Assembly: GCA_964631675.1 (NCBI GenBank) | Contig: CAZVXJ010000002.1 | Location: forward strand, 1-43,012 | Length of the DNA stretch: 43,012 nucleotides | From: an uncultured Alphaproteobacteria bacterium | GTDB taxonomy: Bacteria; Electryoneota; RPQS01 | Direction: 5' to 3' | Shown: piece by piece, positions 4,008-43,012 of the stretch | Numbering within the stretch: the stretch's first letter is position 1 | How the letters are laid out: every line of letters starts with the position of its first letter | Program-made: the position numbers and the translations under genes | The notes under the pieces: model-generated | What the model was told of the DNA's origin: nothing | What the model saw: only the letters and a program-made list of their open reading frames with translations | The model's database searches: none

Positions 4008-4072
4008 GCTTGGAAACGGCATTCGGATATTCAATCAGCCTGCTCGTTGCCGCATTTTTCGAAAAGTAAGCG

Positions 4073-6049: not shown

Positions 6050-6093
6050 GTTTAGCGAAGCGAACTGCATCGAGAAGGCCAAGCAGAGAATCA

Positions 6094-17708: not shown

Positions 17709-17729
17709 TCACACGCCGGAGAAACTAAG

Positions 17730-19223: not shown

Positions 19224-19226
19224 TTC

Positions 19227-22175: not shown

Positions 22176-22180
22176 TTGCT

Positions 22181-22765
22181 ATGAAGTGTTCCATTTTGAT
22201 TGCGACGGCTCTGACAATGGTGCCGCATCTGCTGTACGCTTACCCTGAGTTTCAACGGTACTCACAGGAGCGATCTGGGCGGCCGGTGAACTGCGCCATG
22301 TGCCATATCAGTTCCGATGGTCCGGAGGGTTCGGGTCATGGTCAGATAGGAAGTCTGAATGGTGAGGAATTGAACCGCTTGAATCAGGCGCGTGGCGCCT
22401 TCGCACCGGGGCTCGCCGTGCGAAGTCCGATTCTGAATGAATTTGGGAACAATATCGTGCGGGTGATGGGAAAGCAGAAATTCGTTGAGTTGCGGTCCCG
22501 ACCCGCAGAGCTTCCGGCAAACTATGGGTTCAAGAGTGATCTCGATGGTGACGGTATTCCCGATGCTGAGGAATATCTGGATGGTACACAGCCCCTAAAT
22601 CGTTCACACGGGGCTCCCCTGAAGATATTCATGCACAATCTCATCGCCTACCGCTTTCACATCCTTATGATCGCATTGGCCACTGCCTCAGGGTTATATG
22701 GTCTTGCTCATCTGCTGAGAGGCTTTTCAGTCCGCATGGATCAATCCAAGGACGCACAAGCATGA
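22181..22765 (+). CDS. membrane-anchored monohaem c-type cytochrome (candidate cyt c1/f analogue of the module)
   Basis: The ATG at 22181 lies inside the longer track ORF 21953-22765. It has a signal-like N-terminus MKCSILIATALTMV and a single CAMCH (22292-22306). An acidic DLDGDGIPDAEEYLDG loop and a C-terminal TM helix (FHILMIALATASGLYGLAHLL) follow. The stop overlaps the next start (ATGA). Confidence 0.65.
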   Translation: MKCSILIATALTMVPHLLYAYPEFQRYSQERSGRPVNCAMCHISSDGPEGSGHGQIGSLNGEELNRLNQARGAFAPGLAVRSPILNEFGNNIVRVMGKQKFVELRSRPAELPANYGFKSDLDGDGIPDAEEYLDGTQPLNRSHGAPLKIFMHNLIAYRFHILMIALATASGLYGLAHLLRGFSVRMDQSKDAQA

Positions 22766-24279: not shown

Positions 24280-24289
24280 AGGAGCGCAC

Positions 24290-25855: not shown

Positions 25856-25899
25856 TGCCTTCGGCTATGAGTCCACTGTTTGTACGAGAATGAATTTAC

Positions 25900-25921
25900 C
25901 CCCACCTGATTACAGGTGGGG
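25900..25921 (+). terminator. terminator hairpin at the end of the nar operon
   Basis: A perfect 9-bp stem ccccacctg / caggtgggg has a 4-nt loop and lies 45 nt after the stop. It is followed by an A/T-rich attaattca rather than a clean T-run. Confidence 0.55.
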
Positions 25922-26096
25922 ATTAATTCATGCAGTTTTGATGATGAATACTAGAGTAAGAACTGGGAGATTTCCGCAGCGGTTGACGGGTCGTCAGTAC
26001 TTCGCTCGCTTGGGCCGCCTGACTGAACACGTGCATAGTCAAAGCAGGTGAATAATACTGAACCTTGGCTGCGCATGGCTTTACTGTAATATTCGG

Positions 26097-26125
26097 TTGA
26101 CCTCTGCAGGAGAATTGCATATATT
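26097..26125 (+). promoter_or_regulatory. sigma70-like promoter ~370 nt upstream of the giant ORF
   Basis: It reads TTGACC (26097-26102) - 17 nt - TATATT (26120-26125). Confidence 0.4.
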
Positions 26126-26354
26126 ACGGTGGTAGTTCACATTCTAATATGTTAGTTTACGCCGGGCTGTACTTGTAAGTTGGTTAACAAATGGGCACCC
26201 TATGGAGTCCACCCAAATGGCAGCACAAGTTATTCATAACTTGTTGGATAAAATACTCGTGAAGTGGTCATATTTGCATCGGGCGGCAGGTGCAGATCTA
26301 TGTTCATCAGTGCGATTCTTTACCGCTTGTACTCACAAAATCGTGATTTGGAAT

Positions 26355-26378
26355 AGGCCGGTGACTAATCACCGGCCT
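26355..26378 (+). other. strong hairpin in the leader of the giant ORF (terminator/attenuator-like)
   Basis: A perfect 10-bp stem aggccggtga / tcaccggcct has a 4-nt loop and is followed by ctctgattctt. Confidence 0.4.
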
Positions 26379-26497
26379 CTCTGATTCTTAAGGAATGCTG
26401 GCATGGACGCCGTTTGGTGTTTCGAGGAGCGTTAGAGCCCCATATGAGTCAGGCAAAGGCTTAGTGGCCGATTATCAGATTTGAACGGGAGAATCCA

Positions 26498-29400
26498 ATG
26501 AAGTTAATGGTGAAGGTGTTTGGTTTTTCGCTGGTCCTCTTCTTCACCGCAGCAAGAGCGACCAATGTGGCAGTGAGCGTGACCAATTTCGCCTATACTC
26601 CAAGCACAGTAGTGGTTGCAACAGGCGACACGATAACATGGACTCGCGTGTCAGGCACTCACAATGTGCATCACAACGTAGCCATACCAAAGTTTCACAA
26701 CTCCGTAGGCGGCGCCTGGACGACCTATGTTTGGCCGTGTACGGTCGGCGTAGACGTACTGCCGTATCTATGCGAGCTGCATACGATTTCGACAGGTCAA
26801 GTTTCTGTTGCGGATATCTCCATCACCCTTCCATCCGGCAGCAGTTACTGGGCAACGGAATTACCGCATACAATCGCCTGGAACTCAGCTAATCTTCCCG
26901 GATCCGCAAATGTATCGATTGAATTGAATCGAGCCTATCCGGGTCCCGGCTGGGAGACGATTGTGAGCAGCACCCTCAATGACGGCACACATGCCTTTAA
27001 TCTCACGGGTCCCGCTTCTAATCATGCGAGGGTGCGAATTCGTGCGCTTGCAACGGCCACGATTTCCGGGTCCATTTCCGATACCAATGATTCTGATTTC
27101 ATCATTACGACTCAGTCCGGATTTAGTAATGAGTTGATTGGCTACTGGCCGCTTTCGGCAAATGCAGAAGACTCGAGCGGCCGGGGTAACACATTGGCTA
27201 ACAATCAGGTTGTCTTTGTTTCCGACCGGTATGGCTTTCCAGATGCTGCGGGTTATTTTAACGGTGCATCTGCTTTTCTGTCCACGGAACAGCCTTCCTT
27301 CGCCTTCCATCCCGACAGCGCGTTTACGTTTTCGCTGTGGGCAAGAATCGATTCCTTTAGCAGCGACCTCAATAGTCCGTGCACGATGGCATTCAATGGG
27401 ATCCTTCCTGGGGGCAATCTTGTCTGGATGATGGGTACTCAGCACAGCCAGCTTCGCTTTAGCGGCGCCCAGCAGCAGCATCAGAATGGCTGGCATTCTG
27501 CCGACTGGAGTGTATCCAATCTCACCCTCGGAAATTGGTACCATGTTGTCGGAGTTTACGAAAACCGCATTTTCCGCGAATACGTTGACGGAGTTCAGAG
27601 GGCTGTCAGCAGCGCATTGACCGAAAATCCCCAGGCGGCGGTTATGCCCTTTGCCATCGGCGCGACCCATGTGGCACCGGGTAACACGTGGGGTTTTTTC
27701 AAAGGCGCAATGGACGAGGTCCGACTTTACAGCAGGGCTCTCAGTGAAGGGGAAATCCTCTCGCTCTACCAGCCACTACCAACACTTTCCGGATCGCTTT
27801 CGGGCACTATCACTTCAGGAGAATACCTTGTGGTTGATTCGGTCTTCGTGGATAGCGGAGCCGTTTTGACGATAGAACCGGGAACACGAGTTATTTTCGA
27901 TGCCTGTGTGCCGCTGCTTGTTCGGGGGACGCTATTGGCCATGGGCAGCGAGACCGACTCGATCACATTTCTTGCGGATACGACGGGCGATCCAAACTGG
28001 TGGCAGGGCGTCTATCTTGTGGATACTGCATCCACTCGCAGTCAATTGCAATACTGCAACTTCCGTTTCGGTCAGCCTCCGGCGAGCTTATACTCATACT
28101 CGCGCACGGCGGGCGGCATCACATGCCACAATACATCACCTGAGATTTCCGACTGCACGGTGGAGTTATGTCAGACTGCGGGCATGGCAACCGCGTACTT
28201 TGCCAGCCCGCAGATCAGCCGCTGCGTTATACGGAATAATTCGGGTCATGGCATTCAAATGGGTGATTACGGGTATGGAACGATTCAATACTGTGTCATC
28301 ACAGAGAATTCAGGATCAGGTGTACTCACGGATGGCAATTTTGCAAGTATTCTGTTCACCGATTGCGACGTGACTTTGAACGGGGCTGACGGGGTTCGCC
28401 TGATATCGCAATTTCAACCATTCATTCTCGATCGCTGCCGTGTGAGTCAAAACTACGGGGCGGGAATTCGGATGAGTGGCGCCGAACTTGAAGCCAGAAA
28501 TTGCCGAATTGAACAAAACATGGGAGATGGAGTTCTTGTCAACACTTTCAATGGCACCATCGAGAATTGCATTTTGGGCGAGAATCAGGGCAATGGCATA
28601 ACTTTTCTCTACGGCGGCGGCTCGGTTAATCACTGCACATTTCACTCCAATCAGGGCATCGCTGTATTATGCAACCATGCTGAGCCTGTAAGCATCGAAA
28701 ACTCCATTCTAAATGGAAGTGAAATAGCTGAGCTTCAAATTGATCCTGATGAGTTCTGGCCGCAGCCAGTTGTTGTTCATAATTGTGTGATTTGGGGCGC
28801 AGCACAATTATGTAGTGGGACCTGTCCAGAAGGACTTCTCGAACTGAATTCTGTCAATGCAAATGGGGACCTGTGTGACATCTATCAAAATCTGGCAATG
28901 GACCCGGAGTTTGCAGACCCGCCAAATTCCGACTATTTGCTCCTTGATACCAGCCCCTGCATCGGCGCAGGAGACTTGGCTACTGCGATAAACTTTGACA
29001 TGGACGGCAATCCGCGCCCCGATCCACCGGGCTCGCTGCCGGATATCGGAGCATTCGAGAGTCCGGAAGGGTCGGTTCAAACTGAATGCACGCTTTCAGG
29101 ACCGCTGCCGGCTCAGGTCGGTCCAGGTGTGTGTCATGTAGTCGGAGATATTTCCGTAGCCGCGGGGACGACAACAACCATTGTTCAAGGCACCACGCTA
29201 ATATTCGACGGTGCCTTCCAATTCATGGTTCATGGTGCCCTGCTGGCACTTGGAACCGTTTCAGATTCAATCATCTTCACATCAAGCAATGTCGAACCAA
29301 ACCGCTGGCGTGGACTGCGGATTGAGAGCACGAATGACACTTCGCGACTAGCCTACTGCAAGATTGAAAACGCTCATGCAACCGGTGCGGAGCCGCAGGA

Positions 29401-32400
29401 CCACGGCGGGGGTATCTTTGCATACAATGCATCGCCGGTCATTGAGCACAGCCTCATTCAGAACTGCATAGCTAAACACGGTGGCGGCATCTATCTCTCC
29501 CACAGCTCCAATGGGCGGGTGGCCGATTGCGTGATTTCTAATAACCACTCCGAACCCTATTCGGGCGGTGGGTTGTTTATTCAGCAAAACTCCAACCCTT
29601 TAATCGCACGATGTGACATTTCACAGAACTCGGCACAGAATCTTGGCGGAGGCATCTACGTGTTTCTTGCTTCACCGCGAATCGAGCAGTGCACACTTGA
29701 AAACAACTCGGCGGCCTCGGAAGGAGGAGGACTATATCTTGAGCAATGTGATTCGTCACTCATCAGGGATTGTTCCGTTATCTCAAACTATGCAATCGGC
29801 AATGGCGGAGGTGCGGCATTCAGCGGCGGATCATCACCGCACCTTGTCAATGTCTTGATGCAAGGAAACAGTTCTGTTCAAGGCGGCGGTTTCTATTCAT
29901 TGAATTCTGCAGTCACACTGGACTCGTGCAGTTTGGATTCCAATTGGTGCACCGGTGGTCTTGACCTCGCTGGAGGAGGGTACTGGATTCTCGGAGGTGC
30001 GGCGACGTTTCGCGACTGTCGAATCACGCGCAACTACCTTCCCGCGGACGGGGCCTCAGGAAAAGGAGCCGGTGGGTATGTCCAATCCAATTCCGCAGTA
30101 GAGATGAGCCGATGCACTGTACGCGGAAATTACATCGACCTGACTCGATCAACTCAGCAGGGCATGGGGGCTGGTTTGTATTTTACGGACGAGAACCCGG
30201 TACCATTCAATTTAACGGATTGCATTATTGACAGCAATTACGCGACCGGCGAGATCGGAAGCAACTGGCAGGATGGCGGAGGGTTACATGTCTATTTGAG
30301 CCAGGGCGATATCCGGCGCTGTACAATTGCGGCCAATTCTACATCTCCGGACGGTTCCACCGGGAACGGCGGCGGAGTCTACTTGGAAATGTCACCTGTT
30401 TCCTTCGATTCTTGTACCCTCACCGGCAATACGGCCAATACGGGAGGCGGAATCTATGCCAATGGGGCAGCGGGATTTACGATTATGCACTCGAGCGTTT
30501 CAGGGAATACTGCTTTGGACAGCGGGGGGGGAATGGCACTACAACCAGGCGCTGGTGTCTCTGCGATCAGCAACAGTTTTGATTGGAATCTGGCGGGCGG
30601 AAACGGAGGTGGAATCTATATAGATGGAGATTCGCACTATTTTGAAGACTGCGAGTGGCAAGGAAACACAGCTAATGCCGGCGGCGGCACTTTTCTATTA
30701 GGATCAAATGCCGAGTACAGGAGTTGTCGATTCACGGAGAATGTGGCGCTGGCAGATTATGGAGGTGCTGTGGCCTGTGTTGCGTCTGGTATGTTGGTCT
30801 ACGGTTGCTTAGTCAATGGCAACCTAGCCCCGGTCGGCGCCGGATTCTATTTTCAGAATGCCGGAGAAAGCGAACTTCTTGACTGCACGGTTGATTCGAA
30901 TGTAGCTTCCGACAAGGGTGGCGGCGGGTTCTGCGTCAATTCAGATCCGCAAATATCGCAGTGTTCTTTCAGCAACAATTCTGCGGCAATCCAAGGCGGC
31001 GGTGGTTTGGAGATCGACGCATCAAACCCTTATATCCATGGGTGCCGTTTCGAATCTAACTCGACAACTGGCGGAGGGGCCGGACTTCACATTCGGCAGG
31101 GCTCACTGCCAATCATAGAGAACTGCCTGTTTCTTGATAACTCGGCCACCGTGGCCGCAGGTGGGATTGGGTGCTGGGAATCCAGACCCACGATCAATTT
31201 TTGTTCGTTTGTAGACAATACCGCGGCGGAAGGAGCCGGTCTAACTGCGTACAATTCATCCCGTGTGTCGTTAACCAACTCTGCAATTGTCAACTCCAAC
31301 GGACAGGGCATCTATTCCCACGCAGGCAATTGCAGTTTGCTGGTCAATAATTGCTTTTCTGACAACTCGGGCGGCAATAGTGGCGGCACTCCGCCGACAG
31401 GATTCGGTACGTTATCCACGACAAACGCTAACGGCACGCCGTGCGATCAATACAACAATATATTTGTCGATCCGCAGTTTGATGACACGGGTGCAAACGA
31501 CTTCACACTTCTGCCGTCCAGCCCCTGCATCGGCGCGGGTAATATGGACGCGGTTCCCGATGTTGACATGGACGGCAACCCGCGTCCCGATCCGCTGGGT
31601 TCGCTGCCGGATATTGGAGCATTCGAGAGTCCGGAAGGATCTCCGACGGGGGAACCTGCGGCACTGGTCGGTCATTGGCCATTGGACGGGAATGTGAGTG
31701 ACATGAGCGGCAACGGACATGCCGGCACGTTCAGCGGCGGCACTCCGGTTTATGTCCCTGACAGATTTGGCACAACGAACGGCGCGCTCTCATTTGACGG
31801 AATAAACGACTGTGTCGACACTGGGTGGCCCGGAATACTAGGCGGATCCGCTCGTTCGGTATCACTTTGGATCAAGACCGAATCTCCGACCGGAGGGCCG
31901 GCGCTAGCGTGGGGGGCTCACCCGGATACCAATATTACCGGAATGGTCTTTTATTGTGGAGTGGACTCGCGCGGAAGTTCTCCGGGTGTTTACACGGATA
32001 TCTATGGCGCGGCTGTTCAACATAACGGGACTGTGCTGGATAACCAGTGGCACCACTGCGTATGGGTGGTTCCAGACTCTGCAACTCCCATGCTTGGTGA
32101 TGTCCAGGTTTATCTAGACGGCCAACTGCTCCCCGTGATTGATTGGGTGTGGCCCGGTGGGGCTCCTCCGAATTCTGCGGAAATTTACACGCGGACAGGG
32201 ATACCCTTTTCGATCGGTACGTGGAGGCATGTGACCTGGCTGAACGGAGCGATTGATGAAGTCAGAGTTTACAATTATGCACTTAGCGGTGCGGAGGTGT
32301 TATCGCTTTACCAGCCCCCGCTTACACTATCCGGAGCATTGTCTGACACGCTAGGCCAGGGTGTTTGGCACGTCATCGCAGACATATTTGTTGGTTCAGG

Positions 32401-38400: not shown

Positions 38401-41400
38401 GCAATGGTCGGTTCACAACAACAGTATCGTACCTGCAGCCCCGCAGACATGGGCCGATGGAATCTACCTCTCCGCTAACCCGGAGTTGGATGGCGGTGAT
38501 ATTCTGCTCGGAACTCAAATGCACACCGGAGGTCTTCAGGGCGGCGCAAACTATGCTGCCCAAAAGAGTGTAACGGTACCGGGTCTTGAAGATGGTACCT
38601 ATTACATTATTGTGAAGACAGACAAAGAAAATGCCGTTTATGAATCGGCATTCGAGTCCAATAACTCAGATCAACATGAGTCCGTGAACGTCCTGTTTAC
38701 CCCGACACCGGACTTGGTTGTTGACTCTGTCAGTGCGCCGCTTGCTGCAAGCATCAACGAGCTTATTACGGTGAATTGGCGCACCAACAATGCTGGGGCC
38801 GGTGCAACAGTGCAGTCGAATTGGAATGACCGCGTCTATTTTTCGCTGGACACTATCCTGGACCATGGCTCTGATTTCACATTCGGTCCGTTTGCACACT
38901 CAGGGGTATTGGAGCCGGGACTTGGCTATATGGGCACGGGTAATGTGCAAATTCCTGCTGCAGCAGTCGAGACATTGTATTGCATGGTTGAGACTGATTT
39001 TAGCCATCTGGTCTTTGAGGGCGAAAATGATGGCAACAATTATGCACGGCGTTCACTTCCTATCCTGATACAATTCGCTGACCTGTCAGCCGTGGAGATT
39101 GCACTACCCGAGACGCTGACTGCGCAGCAGACCGTCTCCATTCAGTGGACGGTGCAGAATTGGGGGTCCGGTGCGGTTCTATCGAGTTCATGGACTGATA
39201 ACATCTATTTGTCCACGGACACAATTCTCAACCGTTCGAACGACTACCGAGCGTGCACTGTCAATTACACCGGTGATTTCCCGGCACAGACTGAGTATTT
39301 TGGCACGGGGAACATCACTGTCCCCGGTGGTGCGGCCTCTCAGATGTACTCGTTTGTTGTCACAGACGACAACAACCAGATTCTGGAGAACGGACACGAA
39401 GCCAATAACCTGCTTCTGGATCCTGTTCCGATTACAATTCTGTTTCCCGATCTCAATCCGTATTCGCTCTCTGTGCCGGAATCAGCTTCAGTCAGACAGG
39501 CAGTTTCAATAAACTGGAATGCCCAGAATTCGGGAAGCGGTGATGTGCTGATCAATTCGTGGAGTGACCGTATCTACCTGTCCGCGGACACGGTTCTGAC
39601 GGCAGGCACGGATTTGGTATTGGGTACATTCGTGCACAACGGCAATCTGCCTCGAGCAAGCAGCTATCAGGGGATTGGAAGCGTTGTGTTACCTGATGCG
39701 GTGGTCGGCGAGCACTACGTGTTTGTATGGGTGAATTGGAATAGCCAAGTTGCCGAGTCGCCCTCAGGTGTGAGTAACGTCTATCGAAGCAGCGTACCCA
39801 TAAGAATCGGCTCTCCGGACTTGGAGGTGACTGATGTGACGATTCCATCGGATGCCTACTCGGGCGAATCCGTAGCAGTACAATGGCGAGTCACCAATGC
39901 GGGAACAGGATCGCTGGTCACGACGACATTCACGGATCGTGTCTATCTGTCCCTCGAACCTGAATTTGATGTGCAGACTGCGACCGTTCTTGCAAGTGTC
40001 GCCCGTAATCTTGCCTTGGACCGTGATTCCGGCTATGTTCATCAGGCGGATGTCACACTCCCGAATGGTGTTGAAGGAGCGCGGTATGTGTTTGTCAAGA
40101 CGGATGCCATGAACCAGTTGTTTGAAAATCAATCTGAATCGAACAACGTTGGCCGCTCGGCGGACTCACTTCAGGTAATTCTCAGCCCGTGGCCGGACCT
40201 TGTAGTTTCGGATCTGGTGACGCCGCCGGAGGTTAATGCGGGTAGTTTGCTTTCAGTTTCCTATCAAGTTTCCAATGCAGGTTCATCCGCGGCGATAGCG
40301 TCTCTTTGGACCGACAGAGTGTTTCTTTCATCCAGTCCAACTTGGATTCCGCAGGCAGCCACGGAACTGGCATCGATTCCACACACGGACTCGCTGCAAC
40401 CAGGGAATACCTACTTGGTTCCACGCAATTTCCTTTTGTCCAACTCGATTTCTCCCGGTTTGCGTTACGTCTACGTCCATACTGACGTGAACAACAGTGT
40501 CTTTGAGCACATCGATGAATCCAACAATCTCACGAGAAGTTCACCGATTACTGTCAACGCCTATCCAGCGGTAAACCTCGAGCTGACGACAGTTACCGCT
40601 CCGGACTCAGCTTGGTCAGGCGGTCAAATCACGGTTGGGTGGACGGTACGGAACTCCGGACTTGCGCGAACGCTGGTCTCATCCTGGACCGATGCTGTTT
40701 ACCTGTCCACTGACACGTCCGTCTCCTATGACTCAGATTTCCTCCTGGTCAGTACCAGCCACTTCGGAGCTCTCGATCCTGGGTTTGAATATACTGAATC
40801 GAGGACTGTGACGATACCCAATGGAATCACAGACGAGTACTATCTCATCGTGCGCACTGACATTGGGAACGCTGTCGTTGATTCAAATCGTGCGGATAAT
40901 ACGCGACGGGCTGATGCGCGCATAACTGTCGAATTGTCTCCCTGGCCGGATCTTCAGATTTCATCTTTTGTCTCCGACTCAATAGGGAATGCCGGCCAGC
41001 CATTCAGTGCCGAGTGGATTGTCGAAAACGCCGGTGCGAGTGACGCCTCGGCGACGCCGTGGTACGACGCCGTCTATCTATCAATCAATTCAACACATGA
41101 TGCGGGCGACCTCCTTCTCGCTTCCCGATCGCATACATCGCACCTTTCGGTGGATTCGAGTTATACCGTCTCTTTGGTGGTCGACCTGCCGTCATTCCTT
41201 TCGGGCAACTACTACCTACTGCTGAAAACGGATAACACCAATCATGTATACGAGTATGACTCTGAGTCAAACAACTCACAGACTCGCCAAGTCCTGATTT
41301 TGCTGCCTGCTCCCGCCGATCTCATTGTAACCGACATTCAGGTTCCTGATTCTGCCAGGCCCGGTGATAGTGTCACCGTTACTTGGTCGCTGGTTAACAT

Positions 41401-43012
41401 TGGCACAAACCCCGCAGCAGGATTGATGCGCGACGGTGTGTACCTGTCGACTGACACTCAATGGGACCTTGATGATCCATTGCTCGCGGTCAGCAATCGT
41501 CAAGTGAATATTGGCCCGGGAGGCGCCCTTTCCTTCAGCATGGCTGTGCGCCTGGGCGAATCAATCAGTACGGATTCCACACGCACGCTGGACGAGGAAA
41601 GATCGGGTGAAACGGGCGATTTACGCAACCGCGTTCCCGGACTCAGTCCCGGTGCATACCATGCGGTGGTGCGCACCGATCTCCGAGACAACATCCGCGA
41701 AAGCGACGACGATAACAATATCTCAGCCTCATCGTCCATTCTGAATGTCACTGTACCATCCTTGTCTTTCGACTCTCCTGTTGTGATGGAAATGTCGGCG
41801 GGCGAGATGCGGTTTTATCAGGTCGAGTCAGAGGCAGCCATGGACTTGCATTTCACTCTGCTTGGCGATCAAAACGGCGCGATGAACGAACTTTATGTTT
41901 CGTTCAACCAGATTCCGACACTACTCAATGCTGAGTATGTTGCCAATGAACCTTTTGCGATCAATCAACAGCTGCTCTTACCGGCGGTACAGTCGGGAAC
42001 ATGGTATGTCATGGTATTTGTCCGGTCTCTGCCACCCGGAGGCACAAGCGAACAGCTGTCCCTCAGTGTCGCGACCTTGCCATTCTCGGCGCTTTCCATT
42101 TACCCAAATCAGGGGGGCGCCGGAGGATCTGTTACCTGTGAGCTGCGAGGCGCCGGTTTCGATAGTACGTTGCAGGTGACTCTCATTCTGCCAGACACGG
42201 TGGTATCCGGAACCCTCTTGCAGCTGGTTGATCGAACAAAGGCGTTGGTCCATTGGAATCTCGAGCACGTTCCGCAGGGCATGGCGAGCCTCCTGATTTC
42301 CCGGCTCGATGGATCCACTGATACTCTTGAGTCCCAGTTCGATATTGCGACCGCGGCTCCTACGGCAACCGTGTCCCTCCAAGGCCCGGGAGTCATGCGC
42401 ACGGATCGGGATTACCGTTACGAGATACTGGCTTCGAACACAGGCAACGTGGATTTAACAAACGTCCGGCTCGTGGCCGGGATTCCGCCGCATGTGGGAT
42501 ATCGCTGGGATGATACTTCGTCCTATGTTCGCGCGGATACAGAGTCGGTCGTCGAAACCTTGATGCTGCATTTGCCGGCTGGAACAACTCAAGGTGTCTT
42601 TCTAACGGTTAATCCACTTCAGGCACTCGGATCATCGGGTATCACGGTTTCCCTGCTTGACCCGGGCGCAAGGCTAGGATTTGAGACCTCGTATCTCGGA
42701 CACTTGCCCAGTCAGGGTAACGATACTTCAGTAGTCACTCCGCCTGAACTGGACTCCTGTACAGTCTACGACGCAGCACTGATCTGGAGTTCGTCTGATG
42801 CCTGTCCGGGATACGTGGACTACTTTCGCACTTCGACTGCTTCCGGAGTGCCGCTTGGCGACGCGTGGGGAATCAGGCTTGAAGGTAACGAAGTTGCTCT
42901 CTTCTGGGGACAAATGCAGCCGGATAACGAGGGCCGTCCATTGCCCGGCGTAGGAAGAATTCAAGAACTGCCATTGTCGTCGTTGGACGCCGGACCGGTA
43001 ACTCTCTGGAAC
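26498..43012 (+). CDS. giant modular secreted/surface protein, more than 5,505 aa (3' end outside the window)
   Basis: An in-frame TAG lies at 26462-26464. The ATG at 26498 is preceded by GGGAG (26487-26491). I read no stop codon in this frame through nt 43012 (16,515 nt, exactly 5,505 codons). Conserved motifs at 29042, 31610, 33353, 34637, 36008, 37910 and 40187 all sit in the same phase. The ORF track lists no plus-strand ORF in this phase after 26498. The signal peptide is MKLMVKVFGFSLVLFFTAARA. Confidence 0.9.
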   Translation, partial: MKLMVKVFGFSLVLFFTAARATNVAVSVTNFAYTPSTVVVATGDTITWTRVSGTHNVHHNVAIPKFHNSVGGAWTTYVWPCTVGVDVLPYLCELHTISTGQVSVADISITLPSGSSYWATELPHTIAWNSANLPGSANVSIELNRAYPGPGWETIVSSTLNDGTHAFNLTGPASNHARVRIRALATATISGSISDTNDSDFIITTQSGFSNELIGYWPLSANAEDSSGRGNTLANNQVVFVSDRYGFPDAAGYFNGASAFLSTEQPSFAFHPDSAFTFSLWARIDSFSSDLNSPCTMAFNGILPGGNLVWMMGTQHSQLRFSGAQQQHQNGWHSADWSVSNLTLGNWYHVVGVYENRIFREYVDGVQRAVSSALTENPQAAVMPFAIGATHVAPGNTWGFFKGAMDEVRLYSRALSEGEILSLYQPLPTLSGSLSGTITSGEYLVVDSVFVDSGAVLTIEPGTRVIFDACVPLLVRGTLLAMGSETDSITFLADTTGDPNWWQGVYLVDTASTRSQLQYCNFRFGQPPASLYSYSRTAGGITCHNTSPEISDCTVELCQTAGMATAYFASPQISRCVIRNNSGHGIQMGDYGYGTIQYCVITENSGSGVLTDGNFASILFTDCDVTLNGADGVRLISQFQPFILDRCRVSQNYGAGIRMSGAELEARNCRIEQNMGDGVLVNTFNGTIENCILGENQGNGITFLYGGGSVNHCTFHSNQGIAVLCNHAEPVSIENSILNGSEIAELQIDPDEFWPQPVVVHNCVIWGAAQLCSGTCPEGLLELNSVNANGDLCDIYQNLAMDPEFADPPNSDYLLLDTSPCIGAGDLATAINFDMDGNPRPDPPGSLPDIGAFESPEGSVQTECTLSGPLPAQVGPGVCHVVGDISVAAGTTTTIVQGTTLIFDGAFQFMVHGALLALGTVSDSIIFTSSNVEPNRWRGLRIESTNDTSRLAYCKIENAHATGAEPQDHGGGIFAYNASPVIEHSLIQNCIAKHGGGIYLSHSSNGRVADCVISNNHSEPYSGGGLFIQQNSNPLIARCDISQNSAQNLGGGIYVFLASPRIEQCTLENNSAASEGGGLYLEQCDSSLIRDCSVISNYAIGNGGGAAFSGGSSPHLVNVLMQGNSSVQGGGFYSLNSAVTLDSCSLDSNWCTGGLDLAGGGYWILGGAATFRDCRITRNYLPADGASGKGAGGYVQSNSAVEMSRCTVRGNYIDLTRSTQQGMGAGLYFTDENPVPFNLTDCIIDSNYATGEIGSNWQDGGGLHVYLSQGDIRRCTIAANSTSPDGSTGNGGGVYLEMSPVSFDSCTLTGNTANTGGGIYANGAAGFTIMHSSVSGNTALDSGGGMALQPGAGVSAISNSFDWNLAGGNGGGIYIDGDSHYFEDCEWQGNTANAGGGTFLLGSNAEYRSCRFTENVALADYGGAVACVASGMLVYGCLVNGNLAPVGAGFYFQNAGESELLDCTVDSNVASDKGGGGFCVNSDPQISQCSFSNNSAAIQGGGGLEIDASNPYIHGCRFESNSTTGGGAGLHIRQGSLPIIENCLFLDNSATVAAGGIGCWESRPTINFCSFVDNTAAEGAGLTAYNSSRVSLTNSAIVNSNGQGIYSHAGNCSLLVNNCFSDNSGGNSGGTPPTGFGTLSTTNANGTPCDQYNNIFVDPQFDDTGANDFTLLPSSPCIGAGNMDAVPDVDMDGNPRPDPLGSLPDIGAFESPEGSPTGEPAALVGHWPLDGNVSDMSGNGHAGTFSGGTPVYVPDRFGTTNGALSFDGINDCVDTGWPGILGGSARSVSLWIKTESPTGGPALAWGAHPDTNITGMVFYCGVDSRGSSPGVYTDIYGAAVQHNGTVLDNQWHHCVWVVPDSATPMLGDVQVYLDGQLLPVIDWVWPGGAPPNSAEIYTRTGIPFSIGTWRHVTWLNGAIDEVRVYNYALSGAEVLSLYQPPLTLSGALSDTLGQGVWHVIADIFVGSGDTTVIQPGAILWFDGNYSLTVSGFLMAIGTQTDSIYFTGRSLVEGTRGAGLRFVSADSSVLSYCVIENMHKFGGFYTGAGGGVHMVQSSPQFSRCTIRNNRADYDGGGVGCYDASNPIFENCLIEGNYTQYDAGGLLFHTDCVSTLMNCIVRGNSTDGSSGGGGVFNYASTLSVTNCLIHDNQASGKGGGLIDYNGNLYLTHCTITGNIASDLGGGLSEYESGDVVVQNCILWNNSGQSGENEAHNNSGSILVTHSDVQGGFSGEGNIDFDPLFVNPANADYRLLPTSPCIGAGNMDAVPDVDMDGNPRPDPSGSMPDIGAYENSLGIPQATCTLTGPLPAIVGPGVCHVAGNITIPAGDTTTILNGTTLFFDGPYRLTVNGVVRSLGLLGDSVRFTCDTSVTHWRGINLDFTARDNRFEYTVIEFAERQNENGGGMACVNSTVTLSHSTIRKNRIYHYTGYPHLRGGGLYGTGSTATITDCVIEDNAVDANYDQAGGGLYFDFNSSLTMARSTIRRNWTNIAVGWSGGNGLGLARSTYSISSCRFSGNYAAGSSAQYFTRGSGFYTYQSSGPITNCVFERNSVGNGASDAGGSAVCTEHSSVPVFVNCTFEGNRCPTGGTVFFWDNSSMTLRNSIIANSDGAGVIWGGNAGSVEISHSLIFGNSGGSFIGNPLPQLGVISTMNSNGTPCDQYFNLYLEPQFSDTAARDFSLGQSSPGIGAGDMTSAPATDIEGHPRPNPPGSLPDMGAFESNRGTPFGSDQDLIAFYPLNGNGGDSSGSGNHLVQTDVSFVPNRLGLTNSAARFNGTTAYAADMSPSFVSHEDSAFTIAAWVNLASLSQNGVIAAHHSTNANVFLWSFGPWDQNFRLYAAKQNSGQGGEVNFSLSTMQPGVWYHVAAVYDNSAIRIYRDGVLAGSASHPIDGAVHPQMPFSLGAAYVDGSGFQAHFSGDLDDVLLYNRALSDAEILELATTDCPATPIPFADEFGGSIDTCWNWVPQPPAQWSMSAQPGWLQASTESDLHYLLRTRPGGDFSIQTRVQIAPTQNHHSAGLAYWNNANELVVLRRHFSSDHGGQTITVQTGTACGTDAYIPCTTTDLYLRMEAIGTSLVSSWSADGSTWTAIHTNTCAWIQNPAAKIGICLSHGAYAPPSVQARFDYFHVNEYIAPAITLNSPNGGETLVLGDTVSITWSAPLLNENVAIELNRSFPSLSWETIAATTENDGQFSWPVSGATTSTARIRIRGVATPSIADTSSNNFSIAARTLTLTSPVGGENWYVGQPRSITWLSQSFNESVRIEIDRSFPSELWELLAPGAPNTNQFVWTVAGPATSEARLRISGVNHPSVADTSPGAFTISIPTLAVLSHASGQSLWITNPDTIRWLAPNLTGNVNIELDRSYPSGIWITIASNIANDGIEIWSVSGPVTNSARIRISSASMPVVADTCSLDFAIQLPDLSLINPDGGDSLFITNIDTIQWTSQHLFGNIRIDLNRSYPSVNWEPLFLNTANDGSEVWTVNAPATGNARFRIRSAVDLAIGDTSESDLVIASPVLEIQVPNGGEQWYATKPDTIRWSSYQLSGNVSVQFNRSFPGADWQTIAANTLNDGHEVWIPNLPTSSATRIRVLSMMAAGVGDTSDNNFEIALPSLTLVSPNGGEIFSMGQQALIQWASQDGAGSVRIELNRSYPGPTWEMVEDSTDNDGSYAWLVNYPETEFARIRLTLRSLPQISDTSLNDFVIPPPSPSQLPGLVGSPFPTNSDIISNPLPRISWSPANQSEIYDFYFWPDSTPKPVSPTAGNLTDTYFQTTIPLQSGRFYRWSVTSKNLYGETQSPEWTFRLRGLPDLRVDTVMVNQAWSGQPLQVTWRVTNYGQGPTVTPVWNDRIWLSGDLVVDIDEPEDRMYGPFENEMALAPGESYLNTRTIQIPIDYNGIYFVWVITDNLDAFIVNLGTWCAETHAAGPVVEENECNNFDYAEINITESPTADLEVTTLQATPNNVFSGDTMNVQWSVHNNSIVPAAPQTWADGIYLSANPELDGGDILLGTQMHTGGLQGGANYAAQKSVTVPGLEDGTYYIIVKTDKENAVYESAFESNNSDQHESVNVLFTPTPDLVVDSVSAPLAASINELITVNWRTNNAGAGATVQSNWNDRVYFSLDTILDHGSDFTFGPFAHSGVLEPGLGYMGTGNVQIPAAAVETLYCMVETDFSHLVFEGENDGNNYARRSLPILIQFADLSAVEIALPETLTAQQTVSIQWTVQNWGSGAVLSSSWTDNIYLSTDTILNRSNDYRACTVNYTGDFPAQTEYFGTGNITVPGGAASQMYSFVVTDDNNQILENGHEANNLLLDPVPITILFPDLNPYSLSVPESASVRQAVSINWNAQNSGSGDVLINSWSDRIYLSADTVLTAGTDLVLGTFVHNGNLPRASSYQGIGSVVLPDAVVGEHYVFVWVNWNSQVAESPSGVSNVYRSSVPIRIGSPDLEVTDVTIPSDAYSGESVAVQWRVTNAGTGSLVTTTFTDRVYLSLEPEFDVQTATVLASVARNLALDRDSGYVHQADVTLPNGVEGARYVFVKTDAMNQLFENQSESNNVGRSADSLQVILSPWPDLVVSDLVTPPEVNAGSLLSVSYQVSNAGSSAAIASLWTDRVFLSSSPTWIPQAATELASIPHTDSLQPGNTYLVPRNFLLSNSISPGLRYVYVHTDVNNSVFEHIDESNNLTRSSPITVNAYPAVNLELTTVTAPDSAWSGGQITVGWTVRNSGLARTLVSSWTDAVYLSTDTSVSYDSDFLLVSTSHFGALDPGFEYTESRTVTIPNGITDEYYLIVRTDIGNAVVDSNRADNTRRADARITVELSPWPDLQISSFVSDSIGNAGQPFSAEWIVENAGASDASATPWYDAVYLSINSTHDAGDLLLASRSHTSHLSVDSSYTVSLVVDLPSFLSGNYYLLLKTDNTNHVYEYDSESNNSQTRQVLILLPAPADLIVTDIQVPDSARPGDSVTVTWSLVNIGTNPAAGLMRDGVYLSTDTQWDLDDPLLAVSNRQVNIGPGGALSFSMAVRLGESISTDSTRTLDEERSGETGDLRNRVPGLSPGAYHAVVRTDLRDNIRESDDDNNISASSSILNVTVPSLSFDSPVVMEMSAGEMRFYQVESEAAMDLHFTLLGDQNGAMNELYVSFNQIPTLLNAEYVANEPFAINQQLLLPAVQSGTWYVMVFVRSLPPGGTSEQLSLSVATLPFSALSIYPNQGGAGGSVTCELRGAGFDSTLQVTLILPDTVVSGTLLQLVDRTKALVHWNLEHVPQGMASLLISRLDGSTDTLESQFDIATAAPTATVSLQGPGVMRTDRDYRYEILASNTGNVDLTNVRLVAGIPPHVGYRWDDTSSYVRADTESVVETLMLHLPAGTTQGVFLTVNPLQALGSSGITVSLLDPGARLGFETSYLGHLPSQGNDTSVVTPPELDSCTVYDAALIWSSSDACPGYVDYFRTSTASGVPLGDAWGIRLEGNEVALFWGQMQPDNEGRPLPGVGRIQELPLSSLDAGPVTLWN
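26564..26810 (+). other. cupredoxin (plastocyanin/azurin-like) domain at the N-terminus of the giant protein
   Basis: VTNFAYTPSTVVVATGDTITWTRVSGTHNVHH ... PYLCELHTISTGQVSV follows the F.F.P..V.V..GD.V.W...G.HNV ... Y.C..H....G pattern. Candidate ligands are His/Cys/His plus Gln in place of Met. Confidence 0.5.
26815..27109 (+). repeat. isolated diverged copy of the 95-aa 'NR[SA][YF]P..W' Ig-like repeat
   Basis: ITLPSGSSYW..IAWNSANLPGSANVSIELNRAYPGPGWETIV..NDGTHAF..ARVRIRA..SDTNDSDFII has the same layout as the six repeats at 35900-37609. Confidence 0.6.
27131..27775 (+). other. LamG / concanavalin-A-like domain 1
   Basis: LIGYWPLSANAEDSSGRGN..FNGASAF..WYHVVGVY..GAMDEVRLYSRALSEGEILSLY is the classic Laminin_G_3 layout. 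Confidence 0.7.
27790..29062 (+). other. right-handed beta-helix module 1
   Basis: PbH1-like turns are present (CVIRNNSGHGI, CVITENSGSGV, CRIEQNMGDGV, CILGENQGNGI). The module ends with DPEFAD..DYLLLDTSPCIGAGD..FDMDGNPRPDPPGSLPDIGAFES. Confidence 0.7.
29084..31630 (+). other. right-handed beta-helix module 2 (long, Pmp-like GGG[IL]Y repeats)
   Basis: It starts CTLSGPLPAQVGPGVCHVVGDI. It contains about 20 turns of the type N.A...GGGIY/GGGLY. It ends SPCIGAGNMDAVPDVDMDGNPRPDPLGSLPDIGAFES. Confidence 0.7.
31520..31594 (+). repeat. 75-bp perfect direct repeat, copy 1 (end of beta-helix module 2)
   Basis: The sequence agcccctgcatcggcgcgggtaatatggacgcggttcccgatgttgacatggacggcaacccgcgtcccgatccg is identical to 33263-33337. 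The identical out-of-frame peptide PASARVIWTRFPMLTWTATRVPIR in track ORFs 31287-31697 and 33117-33407 also reveals it. Confidence 0.9.
31664..32320 (+). other. LamG / concanavalin-A-like domain 2
   Basis: The sequence is LVGHWPLDGNVSDMSGNGH..FDGINDCV..WHHCVWV..GAIDEVRVYNYALSGAEVLSLY. Confidence 0.7.
32330..33373 (+). other. right-handed beta-helix module 3
   Basis: Turns include CTIRNNRADYDGGGV, CIVRGNSTDGSSGGGGV and CLIHDNQASGKGGGL. It ends SPCIGAGNMDAVPDVDMDGNPRPDPSGSMPDIGAYEN. Confidence 0.7.
33263..33337 (+). repeat. 75-bp perfect direct repeat, copy 2 (end of beta-helix module 3)
   Basis: See copy 1. The copies are 1,743 bp apart, which is divisible by 3, so both are in the same reading phase. 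Confidence 0.9.
33394..34657 (+). other. right-handed beta-helix module 4
   Basis: It starts CTLTGPLPAIVGPGVCHVAGNI, parallel to the start of module 2. It ends SSPGIGAGDMTSAPATDIEGHPRPNPPGSLPDMGAFES. Confidence 0.7.
34691..35310 (+). other. LamG / concanavalin-A-like domain 3
   Basis: The sequence is LIAFYPLNGNGGDSSGSGN..FNGTTAY..WYHVAAVYD..GDLDDVLLYNRALSDAEILEL. Confidence 0.7.
35335..35890 (+). other. second type of ConA-like jelly-roll domain (DUF1349 / beta-xylosidase-C-terminal-like)
   Basis: The sequence is FADEFGG..WNWV..P..WS....GWL......DL......GDF...T.V......HSAGL..WNN.NELV.L. It continues to ..LYLRMEAIG....SWS.DG..W and ..ARFDYFHV. Confidence 0.5.
35900..37609 (+). repeat. six in-frame tandem repeats of exactly 285 bp (95 aa), Ig-like 'NRS[YF]P..W' domains
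   Basis: The N/D-R-S-[FY]-P codons begin at 36008, 36293, 36578, 36863, 37148 and 37433. That is a constant 285-bp spacing. Each unit has the form ..SP.GGE.....I.W......V.IELNRS[YF]P...W..I...T.NDG...W.V.....ARIRI......D.S...F.I. Confidence 0.85.
37610..37900 (+). other. FN3-like domain
   Basis: The sequence is PSPSQLPGLVGSPFP..ISWSPANQSEIYDFYFWPD..YRWSVTSKNLYGETQSPEWTFRL. Confidence 0.45.
37907..41750 (+). repeat. array of about ten CARDB-like domains (period ~370-415 bp)
   Basis: Unit starts of the PDL.V type lie near 37910, 38323, 38701, 39072, 39441, 39810, 40188, 40560, 40940 and 41310. Each continues with G......V.W.V.N.G.G........D.[IV][YW]LS.D and ends in an E.NE.NN / ESNN-type motif. 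Confidence 0.7.
41755..42360 (+). other. pre-peptidase-C-terminal (PPC)-like domain followed by an IPT/TIG-like domain
   Basis: The PPC-like part reads MEMSAGEMRFYQVESEAAMDLHFTLLGDQNGAMNELYVSFNQIP...GTWYVMVFV. The IPT-like part reads LSIYPNQGGAGGSVTCELRGAGFDSTLQVTL. Confidence 0.45.

Follow-up and report, generated by a model that had tools for sequence, protein, structure and literature searches.

The window, that is, the whole stretch of DNA that we analysed, is an entire contig of 43,012 nt. Across its last 16.5 kb a single frame runs on the plus strand from an ATG at position 26498 to the final nucleotide, 43012 (Table 1). A sequence-only reading of this DNA had claimed that the frame holds no stop codon, and our recount of its 16,515 nt (an exact multiple of 3) gave 0 stops in 5,505 sense codons; read in the remaining five frames, the identical 16,515 nt contain 172, 251, 149, 234 and 224 stops. 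The in-frame TAG at 26462, the nearest 5′ of the ATG, and the GGGAG motif 6 nt before it, both named in that reading, were found again, and the start Met aligns with the annotated N-terminal Met of two homologues, P0002 and P0003. GC is uniform along the gene, with frame, GC and GC3 continuous, and Pfam and NCBIfam family matches are spread over most of the 5,505-aa length. The long stop-free frame is thereby confirmed as a real, uninterrupted gene rather than a product of chance. The mechanical ORF list shows only four ORFs of 157–261 aa in the last 16.5 kb, and a Pfam scan of these four gave no significant match (the sole match had E = 0.09). The giant ORF is absent from the list because the list omits ORFs running off the end, just as the earlier reading had supposed when it blamed the lack of an in-window stop. 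As the window is the entire contig, the gene is truncated by the contig end. One gene making up 38% of a contig was thus hidden by stop-to-stop ORF tracks, and open-ended frames at contig ends should be reported by gene callers and ORF tracks.

Table 1. Features of the giant gene, with residues of its product and coordinates in the window
Feature	Residues (aa)	Position (nt)	Strand	Basis
Shine-Dalgarno-like GGGAG (26487–26491), 6-nt spacer, ATG 26498		26487..26500	+	Read from sequence
Sec-type signal peptide (MKLMVKVFGFSLVLFFTAARA, cleavage before T)	1–21	26498..26560	+	By inspection
Amicyanin/plastocyanin-like cupredoxin	22–105	26561..26812	+	PDB profile search, Pfam
First 95-aa Ig-like repeat (Kre9/KNH-like)	104–202	26807..27103	+	Iterative HMM from internal repeats
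LamG domain 1 (Laminin_G_3)	259–420	27272..27757	+	Pfam E = 3.3e-23, internal HMM
Beta-helix module A + choice-of-anchor Q cap	~440–865	27815..29092	+	Pfam Beta_helix/NosD, NCBIfam NF041518
Beta-helix module B + choice-of-anchor Q cap	~866–1720	29093..31657	+	Pfam Beta_helix, NosD, Chlam_PMP; NF041518
75-nt exact repeat, copy 1, in module B choice-of-anchor Q cap		31520..31594	+	Exact match to copy 2
LamG domain 2	1779–1934	31832..32299	+	Pfam E = 1.3e-13, internal HMM
Beta-helix module C + choice-of-anchor Q cap	~1940–2300	32315..33397	+	Pfam, fragment comparison, NCBIfam
75-nt exact repeat, copy 2		33263..33337	+	1,743 nt (581 codons) downstream of copy 1
Beta-helix module D + choice-of-anchor Q / DUF5123-like cap	~2301–2725	33398..34672	+	Pfam, fragment comparison, NCBIfam
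LamG domain 3	2778–2934	34829..35299	+	Pfam E = 9e-27, internal HMM
ConA-like beta-sandwich (GH43_C2 / DUF1349 type)	~2950–3130	35345..35887	+	Pfam GH43_C2
Six tandem 95-aa Ig-like repeats (Kre9/KNH-like)	3133–3700	35894..37597	+	Internal HMM, six exact 95-aa units
FN3-like domain	~3701–3804	37598..37909	+	Profile with P0017, P0018
Ten tandem CARDB domains, ~112 aa each	3805–5041	37910..41620	+	Pfam CARDB, internal HMM
PPC-like (pre-peptidase C-terminal type) beta-sandwich	~5088–5193	41759..42076	+	Pfam PPC E = 0.0035, below cut-off
IPT/TIG-like Ig domain	~5194–5287	42077..42358	+	Profile of 20 homologues
CLIPPER-like (DUF11/DUF7507-like) Ig domain, then conserved stretch	5288–5505	42359..43012	+	Cut by contig end

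The cupredoxin head and the nitrate-reductase neighbourhood

By eye, the n-region of the signal peptide is basic, its core is hydrophobic and its cleavage site is of the A-x-A type (A-R-A before T), and both the signal peptide and the start codon are common to the giant protein and its homologues. The first 205 aa are 53–57% identical to P0002 and P0003 (HZB60_05595), short KSB1-type proteins of 568–664 aa that share the signal peptide, the cupredoxin and the first 95-aa Ig-like (Ig95) repeat. After this head, nothing but Ig95 repeats and an FN3-like end follows in P0002 and P0003, whereas in the giant protein more than 5,300 residues are still to come. When a profile of the cupredoxin and its two homologues was compared with the PDB, 23 of the 27 matches at E ≤ 10 were cupredoxins and the remaining four were weak ribosomal-protein matches with E > 1. 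The best match was the cupredoxin extension of copper nitrite reductase; amicyanin aligned near full length (E = 0.002). Pfam Copper-bind matched the head at E = 0.038, and P0003 matches the halocyanin (E = 4e-5) and amicyanin (E = 0.0024) models. An AF2 model of the cupredoxin was uninformative (pLDDT ~28, from a 3-sequence alignment of cupredoxin plus Ig95 head). Three copper-ligand columns (His55, Cys92, His95) are kept, together with an amicyanin-like C-x2-H loop, as in amicyanin-type cupredoxins and in P0002 and P0003. The axial Met of P0002 and P0003 gives way to Ser98 in the giant protein, which accordingly lacks a complete His-Cys-His-Met type-1 copper ligand set.

The giant gene lies 642 nt downstream, on the same strand, of a cytochrome c-NarGHJ-NarI/Rieske-cytochrome b-MFS cluster. 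This position, the retained His-Cys-His ligands and the nitrite-reductase extension as best PDB match would fit a redox-active surface protein working with the nitrate-respiration cluster, its blue-copper head shuttling electrons outside the cell. However, Ser stands in place of the axial Met, the cupredoxin contributes 84 residues to a protein of 5,505 or more, hairpins and the long gap part the gene from the nar cluster, and the KSB1 homologue of the head has gene neighbours of an unrelated kind. Moreover, no such giant gene follows the MFS genes in the closest nar-cluster relative (L020, NarH 86% identical), nor was one present at five more distant relatives (L006–L009, L016). Across these loci the position beside the nitrate-reductase cluster is not conserved, and with synteny absent from all six we rejected a functional link to the nar operon; we hold the electron-shuttling reading to be extremely improbable. 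The 642-nt upstream gap gave no sigma-70 or terminator signal above background, and an RNA family search over the window found none. There is a very slim chance that a Met-less copper centre, working or re-tuned, stands at the tip of a ~6,000-aa fibre, that the nar-adjacent position is functional and that the appendage is tied to nitrate respiration; if so, the giant protein would be a redox-active extracellular appendage, not a passive adhesin.

Domains downstream of the head

Downstream of the head lie three LamG domains, four beta-helix modules and a ConA-like domain, the last matched by Pfam GH43_C2 above cut-off (E = 1.2e-13, 51.7 bits). In module A, cysteines recurring every ~23 aa form a ladder, and the AF2 model of the module is a right-handed parallel beta-helix with a core pLDDT of ~90. 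Module B is long (~30 coils) and carries GGG[ILV][YF] motifs, similar to those of Chlamydia polymorphic membrane proteins (PMP), with a period of ~26 aa. PDB searches with the whole protein by sequence returned just one match, a weak one. The nearest PDB folds of the modelled beta-helix were AlgE4, AlgG and AlgE6 (the top matches, with Foldseek E of 2e-7 to 6e-5), GH87 glucanase, PL6 lyases and phage tailspikes/depolymerases. All its significant PDB neighbours are carbohydrate-active, Pfam matches DUF4957/DUF5123 and GH43_C2-type ConA domains, and LamG domain 3 bears a weak likeness to the accessory domain of an arabinanase (5hon), all of which would fit a giant extracellular enzyme that degrades or modifies polysaccharides, with catalytic beta-helices (lyase, glycosidase or C5-epimerase-like) and the rest as carbohydrate-binding or spacer parts, as in multi-modular CAZymes. 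Yet identity to these PDB enzymes is 10–14% with TM-scores of 0.3–0.5, and the likeness is one of generic fold. DPHD-type sequences form the catalytic motif of AlgG/AlgE epimerases, but the 5,505 aa contain neither DPH nor DPHD. In addition, Pfam and NCBIfam gave no match above threshold to a catalytic CAZyme family. The coils are regular, uniform PMP-like repeats with short loops and none that are long. We therefore regard an enzymatic role as unlikely, though lyase, hydrolase or epimerase action by some other set of catalytic residues keeps some weight.

The following half consists of tandem beta-sandwich domains. The six 95-aa repeats share 34–50% identity among themselves. The FN3-like domain had no Pfam match, but its profile matched only FN3-containing chains in the PDB (titin, 8e-9; RPTP-F, 0.014). 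The ten CARDB domains lead into the PPC-like domain; the homologous position in the relative P0019 likewise matches PPC below cut-off (E = 0.0027), and in P0021, another relative, six strong PPC domains occur at other places in the sequence. The profile of the IPT-like domain and its 20 homologues matches CGTase domain D (E = 0.005) and plexin. In the CLIPPER-like domain we obtained only weak DUF7507, DUF11 and B_ant_repeat matches, at aa ~5306–5326. The last 590 aa hold one lysine, K5248, and none lies in aa 5249–5505, so that the CLIPPER-like domain has no Lys-Asp-Asn isopeptide triad. Overall, domain scans and profiles recovered every domain named in the sequence-only reading and reproduced its counts, with the PPC-like domain weak only.

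Homologues, assembly and the C-terminus beyond the contig

A word-based search with the last 555 aa yielded one weak match, P0001, because CARDB words dominated, and a scan of GTDB representative genomes and JGI metagenomes with the same 555 aa found no extension of the contig, nor did three proteins encoded in the window have an exact match on record. Relatives were instead found by an exhaustive HMMER search with the final 421 aa, the CARDB part being excluded: 1,628 library proteins matched at E ≤ 0.001, and among the matches listed most cover the first ~240 aa of the query (PPC-like plus IPT-like). Two homologues extend much further. P0017 (JGI metagenome 3300075153; 2,617 aa, 5′-truncated) also has ten CARDB domains and aligns with the C-terminal 2,051 aa in one HSP, and P0018 (MBK6765080.1) makes up ~4,010 aa together with an upstream ORF in GCA_016703065.1, the two being split by a frameshift. 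P0017 and the GCA_016703065.1 homologue follow the C-terminal ~2,050 aa collinearly, with 36–38% identity over 1,460–2,070 aa, and aa 5288–5505 are 41–42% identical over their full length to P0017 and P0018. Both share with the giant protein the Ig95-FN3-CARDB(9–10)-PPC-IPT-CLIPPER-like half, and all three are lysine-poor. The GCA_016703065.1 homologue adds an upstream Ig95 repeat and one beta-helix/choice-of-anchor Q module, whereas the giant protein has a larger N-terminal half with the cupredoxin head, three LamG domains, four beta-helix modules and the ConA-like domain. Judged by the low identity, P0017 and P0018 are members of the family and not the same gene. Public data gave no collinear homologue of the N-terminal 3,100 aa.

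This gap among homologues, where the assembly rests on one contig, bears on whether the ORF is partly an artefact, either a chimera of at least two genes joined via repeats or a collapse or expansion of repeat modules. The in-frame 75-nt repeat could contribute, as its copies lie 581 codons apart and short k-mers could hide extra or fewer units of LamG domain 2 plus beta-helix module C. However, recombination at this repeat would preserve the frame and alter only the number of modules, and the gene has no other long exact DNA repeat, nor any other repeat of more than 25 nt with high identity. The internal protein repeats have diverged (in the fragment comparison, no match longer than 50 aa exceeds ~67% aa identity), all repeats other than the 75-nt one being 30–50% identical at the protein level, and frame, GC and GC3 are continuous. 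The order from beta-helix to Ig95, FN3, ten CARDB, PPC and IPT is seen again in independent assemblies, and by sequence comparison the collinear homologue independently corroborates the C-terminal 2,050 aa. An assembly artefact is unlikely, and chimerism or a wrong module count within the ORF seems to us quite improbable.

P0017 and P0018 go on for 545–575 aa after the point where the window stops; this stretch holds an isopeptide-type DUF7619 domain, then an FN3-like domain and finally a basic tail. The full-length protein is therefore probably ~6,050 aa (~6,050–6,080 aa) long. By collinearity, ~550–575 of its residues probably lie beyond the contig end, with a Cys-rich segment as well as DUF7619, one FN3-like domain or a pair of them, and the basic tail. 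Among the best 150 of the 1,628 relatives, 85 carry the DUF7619 cassette, a recurring conserved C-terminal arrangement of the form PPC-IPT-...-DUF7619. In two distant relatives, P0001 (locus L004) and P0021, a shared CARDB-PPC-IPT part is followed by DUF6531 and RHS repeats, as would be expected if the giant protein were the N-terminal delivery part of an RHS/YD polymorphic toxin whose missing C-terminus held DUF6531, RHS repeats and a toxin domain. But the two relatives matching the whole final 421 aa (41–42%) go on to DUF7619 and an FN3-like domain and then stop, with no RHS; the DUF7619 cassette is carried by the majority of the best relatives as counted above, and Pfam gave no RHS or DUF6531 match in the window. 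As the closest homologues have DUF7619 plus FN3-like downstream instead of RHS, we rejected the toxin reading, which we consider very improbable.

The sorting signals of the relatives differ. Of the 85 cassette-bearing relatives, which are more distant, 52 end in a T9SS-CTD-like tail, and P0019 has a Por_Secre_tail by Pfam. P0017 and P0018, the closest relatives with complete C-termini, have no T9SS sorting domain (type A PF18962/TIGR04183 or type B PF13585/TIGR04131) even at E ≤ 1, and no T9SS, LPXTG or PEP-CTERM-type signal was recognised in them; the nearest relatives thus finish in an FN3-like domain and a basic tail, not a T9SS tail. In the window, the neighbouring ORF 908–3916 matches FlgD_ig above cut-off (27.8 bits) and Por_Secre_tail below it (21.7 bits), and no T9SS machinery gene lies within the 43,012 nt. 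The locus of the closest nar-cluster relative, L020, encodes BNR proteins with Por_Secre_tail.

Comparison with known giant surface proteins

We consider it likely that the product of the gene is exported via Sec and acts outside the cell, without enzymatic activity, as a surface protein of the fibrillar-adhesin type. The host is an uncultivated bacterium of the FCB group (Fibrobacterota-Chlorobiota-Bacteroidota), probably of candidate division KSB1, a placement given by few genes. The domains and their order, the export signal and the homologies can be seen in the sequence, whereas we infer the function of the giant protein from its architecture, including its surface attachment, the type of ligand and the absence of catalysis. 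Its N-terminal secretion signal is seen by inspection of aa 1–21, a stalk of tandem beta-sandwich repeats is present (six Ig-like and ten CARDB domains contiguous, plus FN3-, PPC- and IPT-like domains), and LamG (three copies), ConA-like and PMP-like beta-helix modules are candidate terminal adhesive domains. In this fibrillar-adhesin model, the distal half (aa 22–3130) holds the candidate ligand-binding parts, namely the cupredoxin head, the LamG domains, the four beta-helix modules (right-handed and parallel, their coils of the PMP-like GGG[ILV][YF] type, and each ending in its choice-of-anchor Q cap) and the ConA-like domain. The proximal half (aa 3133–5505), with its Ig-like, FN3-like, CARDB, PPC-like, IPT-like and CLIPPER-like domains, forms the stalk. 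The C-terminal end would keep the protein attached to the cell surface, and the binding half may project tens of nanometres outward and bind polysaccharide, particle or other-cell surfaces. A cell-surface adhesin-like or substrate-binding megaprotein, as the earlier reading had proposed, is thus the best-supported interpretation, given the signal peptide, the lectin-like LamG and ConA-like domains, the PMP-like beta-helices, the Ig-like/CARDB stalk and the isopeptide-type domains and T9SS tails of the relatives.

Like fibrillar adhesins, the giant protein has a signal peptide and a long tandem beta-sandwich stalk, here with candidate binding domains at the far end, and Chlam_PMP-type beta-helix repeats co-occur in both (PMC12617251). 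DUF7619, DUF11 and DUF7507 are isopeptide stalk domains of fibrillar adhesins (PMC12617251); here, relatives carry DUF7619 and the window has weak DUF11/DUF7507-like matches, but, unlike in fibrillar adhesins, the CLIPPER-like domain is without the lysine for an isopeptide bond. Further differences from that group (PMC12617251) are a stalk made mostly of CARDB and Kre9/KNH-like Ig repeats and an unusually large binding half with four beta-helix modules. Flavobacterium johnsoniae SprB, a T9SS giant adhesin (PMC10202324), and the giant protein are both surface adhesin candidates of several hundred kDa from FCB-group organisms with T9SS cargo, the cargo being putative in the host here, and many relatives sharing the giant protein's C-terminal cassette likewise end in a type A CTD-like tail. 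In contrast to SprB (PMC10202324), no CTD is visible here, the C-terminus lying beyond the contig, and no sprF/porP-like gene is visible in the window.

The giant gene is new, but the kind of giant surface protein to which its product belongs is known, and it is a fairly ordinary example. With it, a little-studied, KSB1-like FCB lineage gains an adhesin-like, lysine-poor protein of ~6,000 aa; current understanding is not overturned. In the study of giant genes from Omnitrophota and other phyla, at least 10,000 aa counted as 'large' and at least 30,000 aa as 'giant', and the proteins have many TM helices and SecA-like domains (bioRxiv 10.1101/2023.11.21.568195). The protein described here differs in its length of ~6,000 aa and in having no ATPase domain by Pfam, and on reading its translation we noticed no TM segment beyond the signal peptide. 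Shared with the genes of that study (bioRxiv 10.1101/2023.11.21.568195) are the great length, the metagenomic origin, the truncation by assembly and an adhesion-type interpretation.

A reading frame open to the contig end

Translation of the plus strand from the ATG at 26498 to the contig end at 43012 gave 5,505 codons with no stop, over a length divisible by three, as the sequence-only reading had expected. The gene start it described was also recovered: GGGAG (26487–26491) lies 6 bases 5' of the ATG, and the closest in-frame stop 5' of the ORF is a TAG at 26462. The remaining five frames over the same 16,515 nt hold 172, 251, 149, 234 and 224 stops, so the giant open frame is not a chance event. 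For this region the ORF list contains only four ORFs of 157–261 aa, none with a significant Pfam match (best and only E = 0.09). The giant ORF is absent because the list leaves out ORFs running off the end, which bears out the proposal that the missing stop had hidden it. The database entry for the NarH encoded here gives 43,012 nt as its longest contig; the window is thus the whole contig, and the giant gene is cut by the contig end. Its upstream 642-nt non-coding gap (25856–26497) contains two GC-rich hairpins, one (25900–25921) 45 nt past the stop of an MFS gene and lacking a U-tract, the other (26357–26377) followed by a T-rich stretch. A single sigma-70-like site (26097–26125) in the gap is no more than chance would give, and the gap has no Rfam match.

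That the giant ORF is partly an assembly artefact appears improbable. Its modules share 25–50% amino-acid identity among themselves (maximum ∼67% over >50 aa), and these internal repeats are old. The gene holds one DNA repeat family only, four 122-nt copies in the caps that close the beta-helix modules. Within this family, an exact 75-nt repeat (31520–31594 and 33263–33337; spacing 1,743 nt, or 581 codons) sits in the caps that close beta-helix modules B and C; their flanks share only ∼35% amino-acid identity, which suggests recent intragenic gene conversion. Nowhere else could an assembly of short reads get the module count wrong, and either recombination or an ambiguous graph at this repeat would keep the frame and alter only the number of LamG 2 plus beta-helix C units. 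GC and GC3 of the gene carry on those of the remaining contig without a break. The strongest support for the assembly comes from P0017, a 5'-truncated protein of an independent JGI metagenome (3300075153), which aligned with aa 3455–5505 in a single HSP (2,069 columns, 38% identity) and also has 10 CARDB units. A homologue in GCA_016703065.1 has the order Ig95 (the 95-aa Ig-like repeat), beta-helix/choice-of-anchor Q, Ig95 repeats, FN3, CARDB, PPC, IPT. A shared-word search of 5.8 billion proteins found no collinear homologue of the N-terminal 3,100 aa, and the contig is therefore the one source for the N-terminal half.

Domain architecture and the beta-helix modules

The map of the giant protein draws on Pfam and NCBIfam searches with its sequence cut into overlapping 600-aa pieces, on iterative HMMs from its own repeats and on fragment self-comparison. 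Together with structure-profile searches, these recovered every domain called in the sequence-only reading.

Predicted domains of the giant protein and the basis of each assignment
Feature	Position (aa)	Basis
Signal peptide	1–21	By inspection
Cupredoxin	22–105	Profile search against solved structures
95-aa Ig-like repeat (Kre9/KNH-like)	104–202	Internal HMM
LamG 1	259–420	Pfam and internal HMM
Beta-helix module A	∼440–865	Pfam, NCBIfam, self-comparison
Beta-helix module B	∼866–1720	Pfam, NCBIfam, self-comparison
LamG 2	1779–1934	Pfam and internal HMM
Beta-helix module C	∼1940–2300	Pfam, NCBIfam, self-comparison
Beta-helix module D	∼2301–2725	Pfam, NCBIfam, self-comparison
LamG 3	2778–2934	Pfam and internal HMM
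ConA-like GH43_C2/DUF1349 sandwich	∼2950–3130	Pfam, 51.7 bits
Six exact 95-aa Ig-like repeats	3133–3700	Internal HMM
FN3-like domain	∼3701–3804	Profile against solved structures
Ten CARDB domains	3805–5041	Pfam and internal HMM
PPC-like domain	∼5088–5193	Pfam E = 0.0035
IPT-like domain	∼5194–5287	Profile against solved structures
CLIPPER-like region (weak DUF11/DUF7507), followed by conserved sequence of unassigned fold	5288–5505	Pfam, NCBIfam

Against solved structures, a three-sequence profile of the FN3-like domain matched FN3-containing chains only (titin, 8e-9; RPTP-F, 0.014), and a 20-sequence profile of the IPT-like domain matched CGTase domain D (E = 0.005) and plexin. With the three-sequence cupredoxin profile, 23 of 27 matches at E <= 10 were cupredoxins, led by amicyanin (E = 0.002, alignment 3–83 of 85) and the cupredoxin extension of copper nitrite reductase; the other four were weak matches to ribosomal proteins (E > 1). 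All four beta-helix modules close with a conserved 'DPxF...SPCIGAG...DxDGNPRP...PDIGAFE' segment that matches NCBIfam NF041518, choice-of-anchor Q. Module A carries a cysteine ladder (∼28154–28636, aa 553–713), one per coil every 22–24 residues, at aa 553, 576, 599, 623, 647, 669, 691 and 713.

An AlphaFold model of module A, computed from all four modules aligned with two homologues, had a confident core (pLDDT ∼90 over residues 1–300) and a poor cap. Its closest solved structures were the mannuronan C5-epimerases AlgE4, AlgG and AlgE6, a GH87 glucanase, PL6 lyases and phage tailspikes/depolymerases, with identities of only 10–14% and TM-scores of 0.3–0.5; as modelled, module A shows a carbohydrate-type right-handed beta-helix, which falls short of placing it in any of those enzyme families. 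All of these neighbours are carbohydrate-active, as would suit a multi-modular polysaccharide enzyme. However, DPHD, the mannuronan C5-epimerase motif, is absent from all 5,505 aa, Pfam and NCBIfam gave no CAZyme catalytic family match above threshold in the protein, and the coils, with 16 GGG[ILV][YF] motifs spaced mostly ∼25–31 residues apart, match Chlam_PMP (Pfam) as in PMP-type adhesins. An enzyme is thus unlikely, and we infer a lack of catalysis.

The architecture and homologies instead support the adhesin-like or substrate-binding surface protein of the sequence-only reading, with a module number subject to the 75-nt repeat. The giant protein is likely exported via Sec and exposed on the cell surface, where the distal half would offer binding surfaces of lectin-like (LamG, ConA-like) and beta-helix type and the proximal half would form a long semi-rigid stalk. 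The C-terminal region beyond the contig end would hold it on the cell; this attachment and the class of ligand are likewise what we infer. An RHS-type toxin carrier is very improbable. By architecture, the protein resembles fibrillar adhesins and T9SS-displayed giant adhesins, for example SprB (PMC10202324), its own C-terminus lying beyond the contig. Omnitrophota giant genes fall into 10,000–30,000-aa classes with TM and SecA features (bioRxiv 10.1101/2023.11.21.568195), whereas the giant protein is far shorter and has none of their TM features (translation read by eye) or SecA features. Its closest relatives are uncharacterized metagenomic proteins, P0017 and P0018 (MBK6765080.1, from the GCA_016703065.1 homologue), and as a combination the N-terminal half had no close counterpart in the shared-word search of 5.8 billion proteins. 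The gene merits correct annotation and will not surprise a specialist.

C-terminal relatives and sorting

An exhaustive HMMER search (E <= 0.001) with the last 421 aa matched 1,628 proteins, and the PPC-like and IPT-like pair was common to most matches listed. P0017 (2,617 aa) and P0018 (2,414 aa) matched the whole query at 41–42% identity and extend 575 and 545 residues, respectively, beyond the position aligned with the window's last codon; the P0017 frame closes with a genuine stop codon within its own contig. Both extensions run from a Cys-rich segment through a ∼280-aa block including Pfam DUF7619 to FN3-like sequence and a short basic tail. If collinear with them, the full giant protein would have ∼6,050–6,080 aa. 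DUF7619, DUF11 and DUF7507 have been described as CnaA-like intramolecular-isopeptide domains of Gram-negative fibrillar-adhesin stalks (PMC12617251), and the DUF7619 block is kept in 85 of the best 150 of the 1,628 matches. Of these 85, 52 end in a T9SS-like tail by our own HMM, built on four tails verified or suggested by Pfam, and a more distant relative, P0019, has Por_Secre_tail and FlgD_ig (Pfam). Neither P0017 and P0018 nor P0002 and P0003, short cupredoxin-Ig95 homologues of the head, had a T9SS, type B or other recognized sorting domain, even at E <= 1. A T9SS tail is thus plausible for the wider family and not supported by the nearest relatives.

All four nearest relatives (loci L001:10001–11707 and L019:10001–17245 among them) share an FN3-like end with W...Y.(V/I)Y...Y(F/Y).V motifs, followed by the short basic tail in P0017 and P0018. 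None of the four bears a T9SS CTD, a feature that is seen on further secreted proteins of this lineage, and the FN3-like end could serve as a C-terminal module or sorting signal specific to the lineage. Annotation divides the homologue containing P0018 (L019:5208–17245, JADJCU010000001.1) into two genes (1,598 and 2,414 aa) with a 4-nt overlap. Because its Ig95 repeats pass from frame 3 to frame 2 at ∼9,930 (tblastn), it is one gene of ∼4,010 aa, split by either an assembly frameshift or a true mutation. It is preceded by a CsgG-family gene and directly followed by a 1,050-aa TPR protein; downstream of P0017 is a gene of >1,063 aa.

Neighbourhood and host

Upstream of the giant gene lie molybdenum-cofactor genes, a dihaem cytochrome c, NarG, NarH, NarJ, a NarI-Rieske fusion, cytochrome b and two MFS transporters, and ORF 908–3916 encodes another secreted protein, which carries a T9SS-type tail. 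The cupredoxin head keeps His55, Cys92 and His95, with Ser98 in the axial Met column (Met in P0002 and P0003); it may bind copper. A redox appendage, in which a functional copper head is coupled to this nitrate-respiration cluster, nevertheless ranks among the least probable readings. In the closest nar relative (NarH 86% identical), no giant gene follows the MFS pair and BNR/T9SS proteins lie on the opposite strand instead; five more distant relatives likewise have no giant gene there. The KSB1 head homologue adjoins infB-rbfA-truB-rpsO-pnp, and on this contig the 642-nt gap and its two hairpins stand between the MFS and giant genes. The adjacency to the nar cluster is thus not conserved and is probably incidental.

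Residues 1–205 are 53–57% identical to P0002 and P0003, one of them from the candidate division KSB1 MAG GCA_016214895.1, and the closest nar cluster and a second contig with the KSB1 protein come from a common run series (SRR12113393, SRR12113394, SRR12113396). On these grounds we propose, with moderate confidence, an uncultivated KSB1-like FCB-group host.

Strong lysine depletion marks the secreted proteins of the contig (giant protein 0.4%, 23/5,505 aa; ORF 908–3916, 0.5%; ORF 10–795, 1.1%; cytoplasmic and membrane proteins, 1.9–5.6%); as arginine is not raised in compensation, their pI is ∼4.1–4.6. P0002, P0003, P0017 and P0018 are likewise lysine-poor (0.45–0.75%). The minus-strand genes at 4073–6876, a pyridine-nucleotide-disulphide oxidoreductase (FCSD/SQR-like) and a ScdA/hemerythrin 'repair of iron centres' protein, sit upstream of the molybdenum-cofactor and nar genes and would fit a nitrosative-stress/denitrification neighbourhood. 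The nar cluster itself (13243–25855) is unusual in make-up, with a C-terminal Rieske fusion on NarI (19756–21072) and a cytochrome b/b6-type protein (21069–22175). This suggests a Nar-bc-type supercomplex, and the pairing is kept in at least 14 metagenomic loci (49–66% identity) and in L020, the locus of the closest nar cluster.
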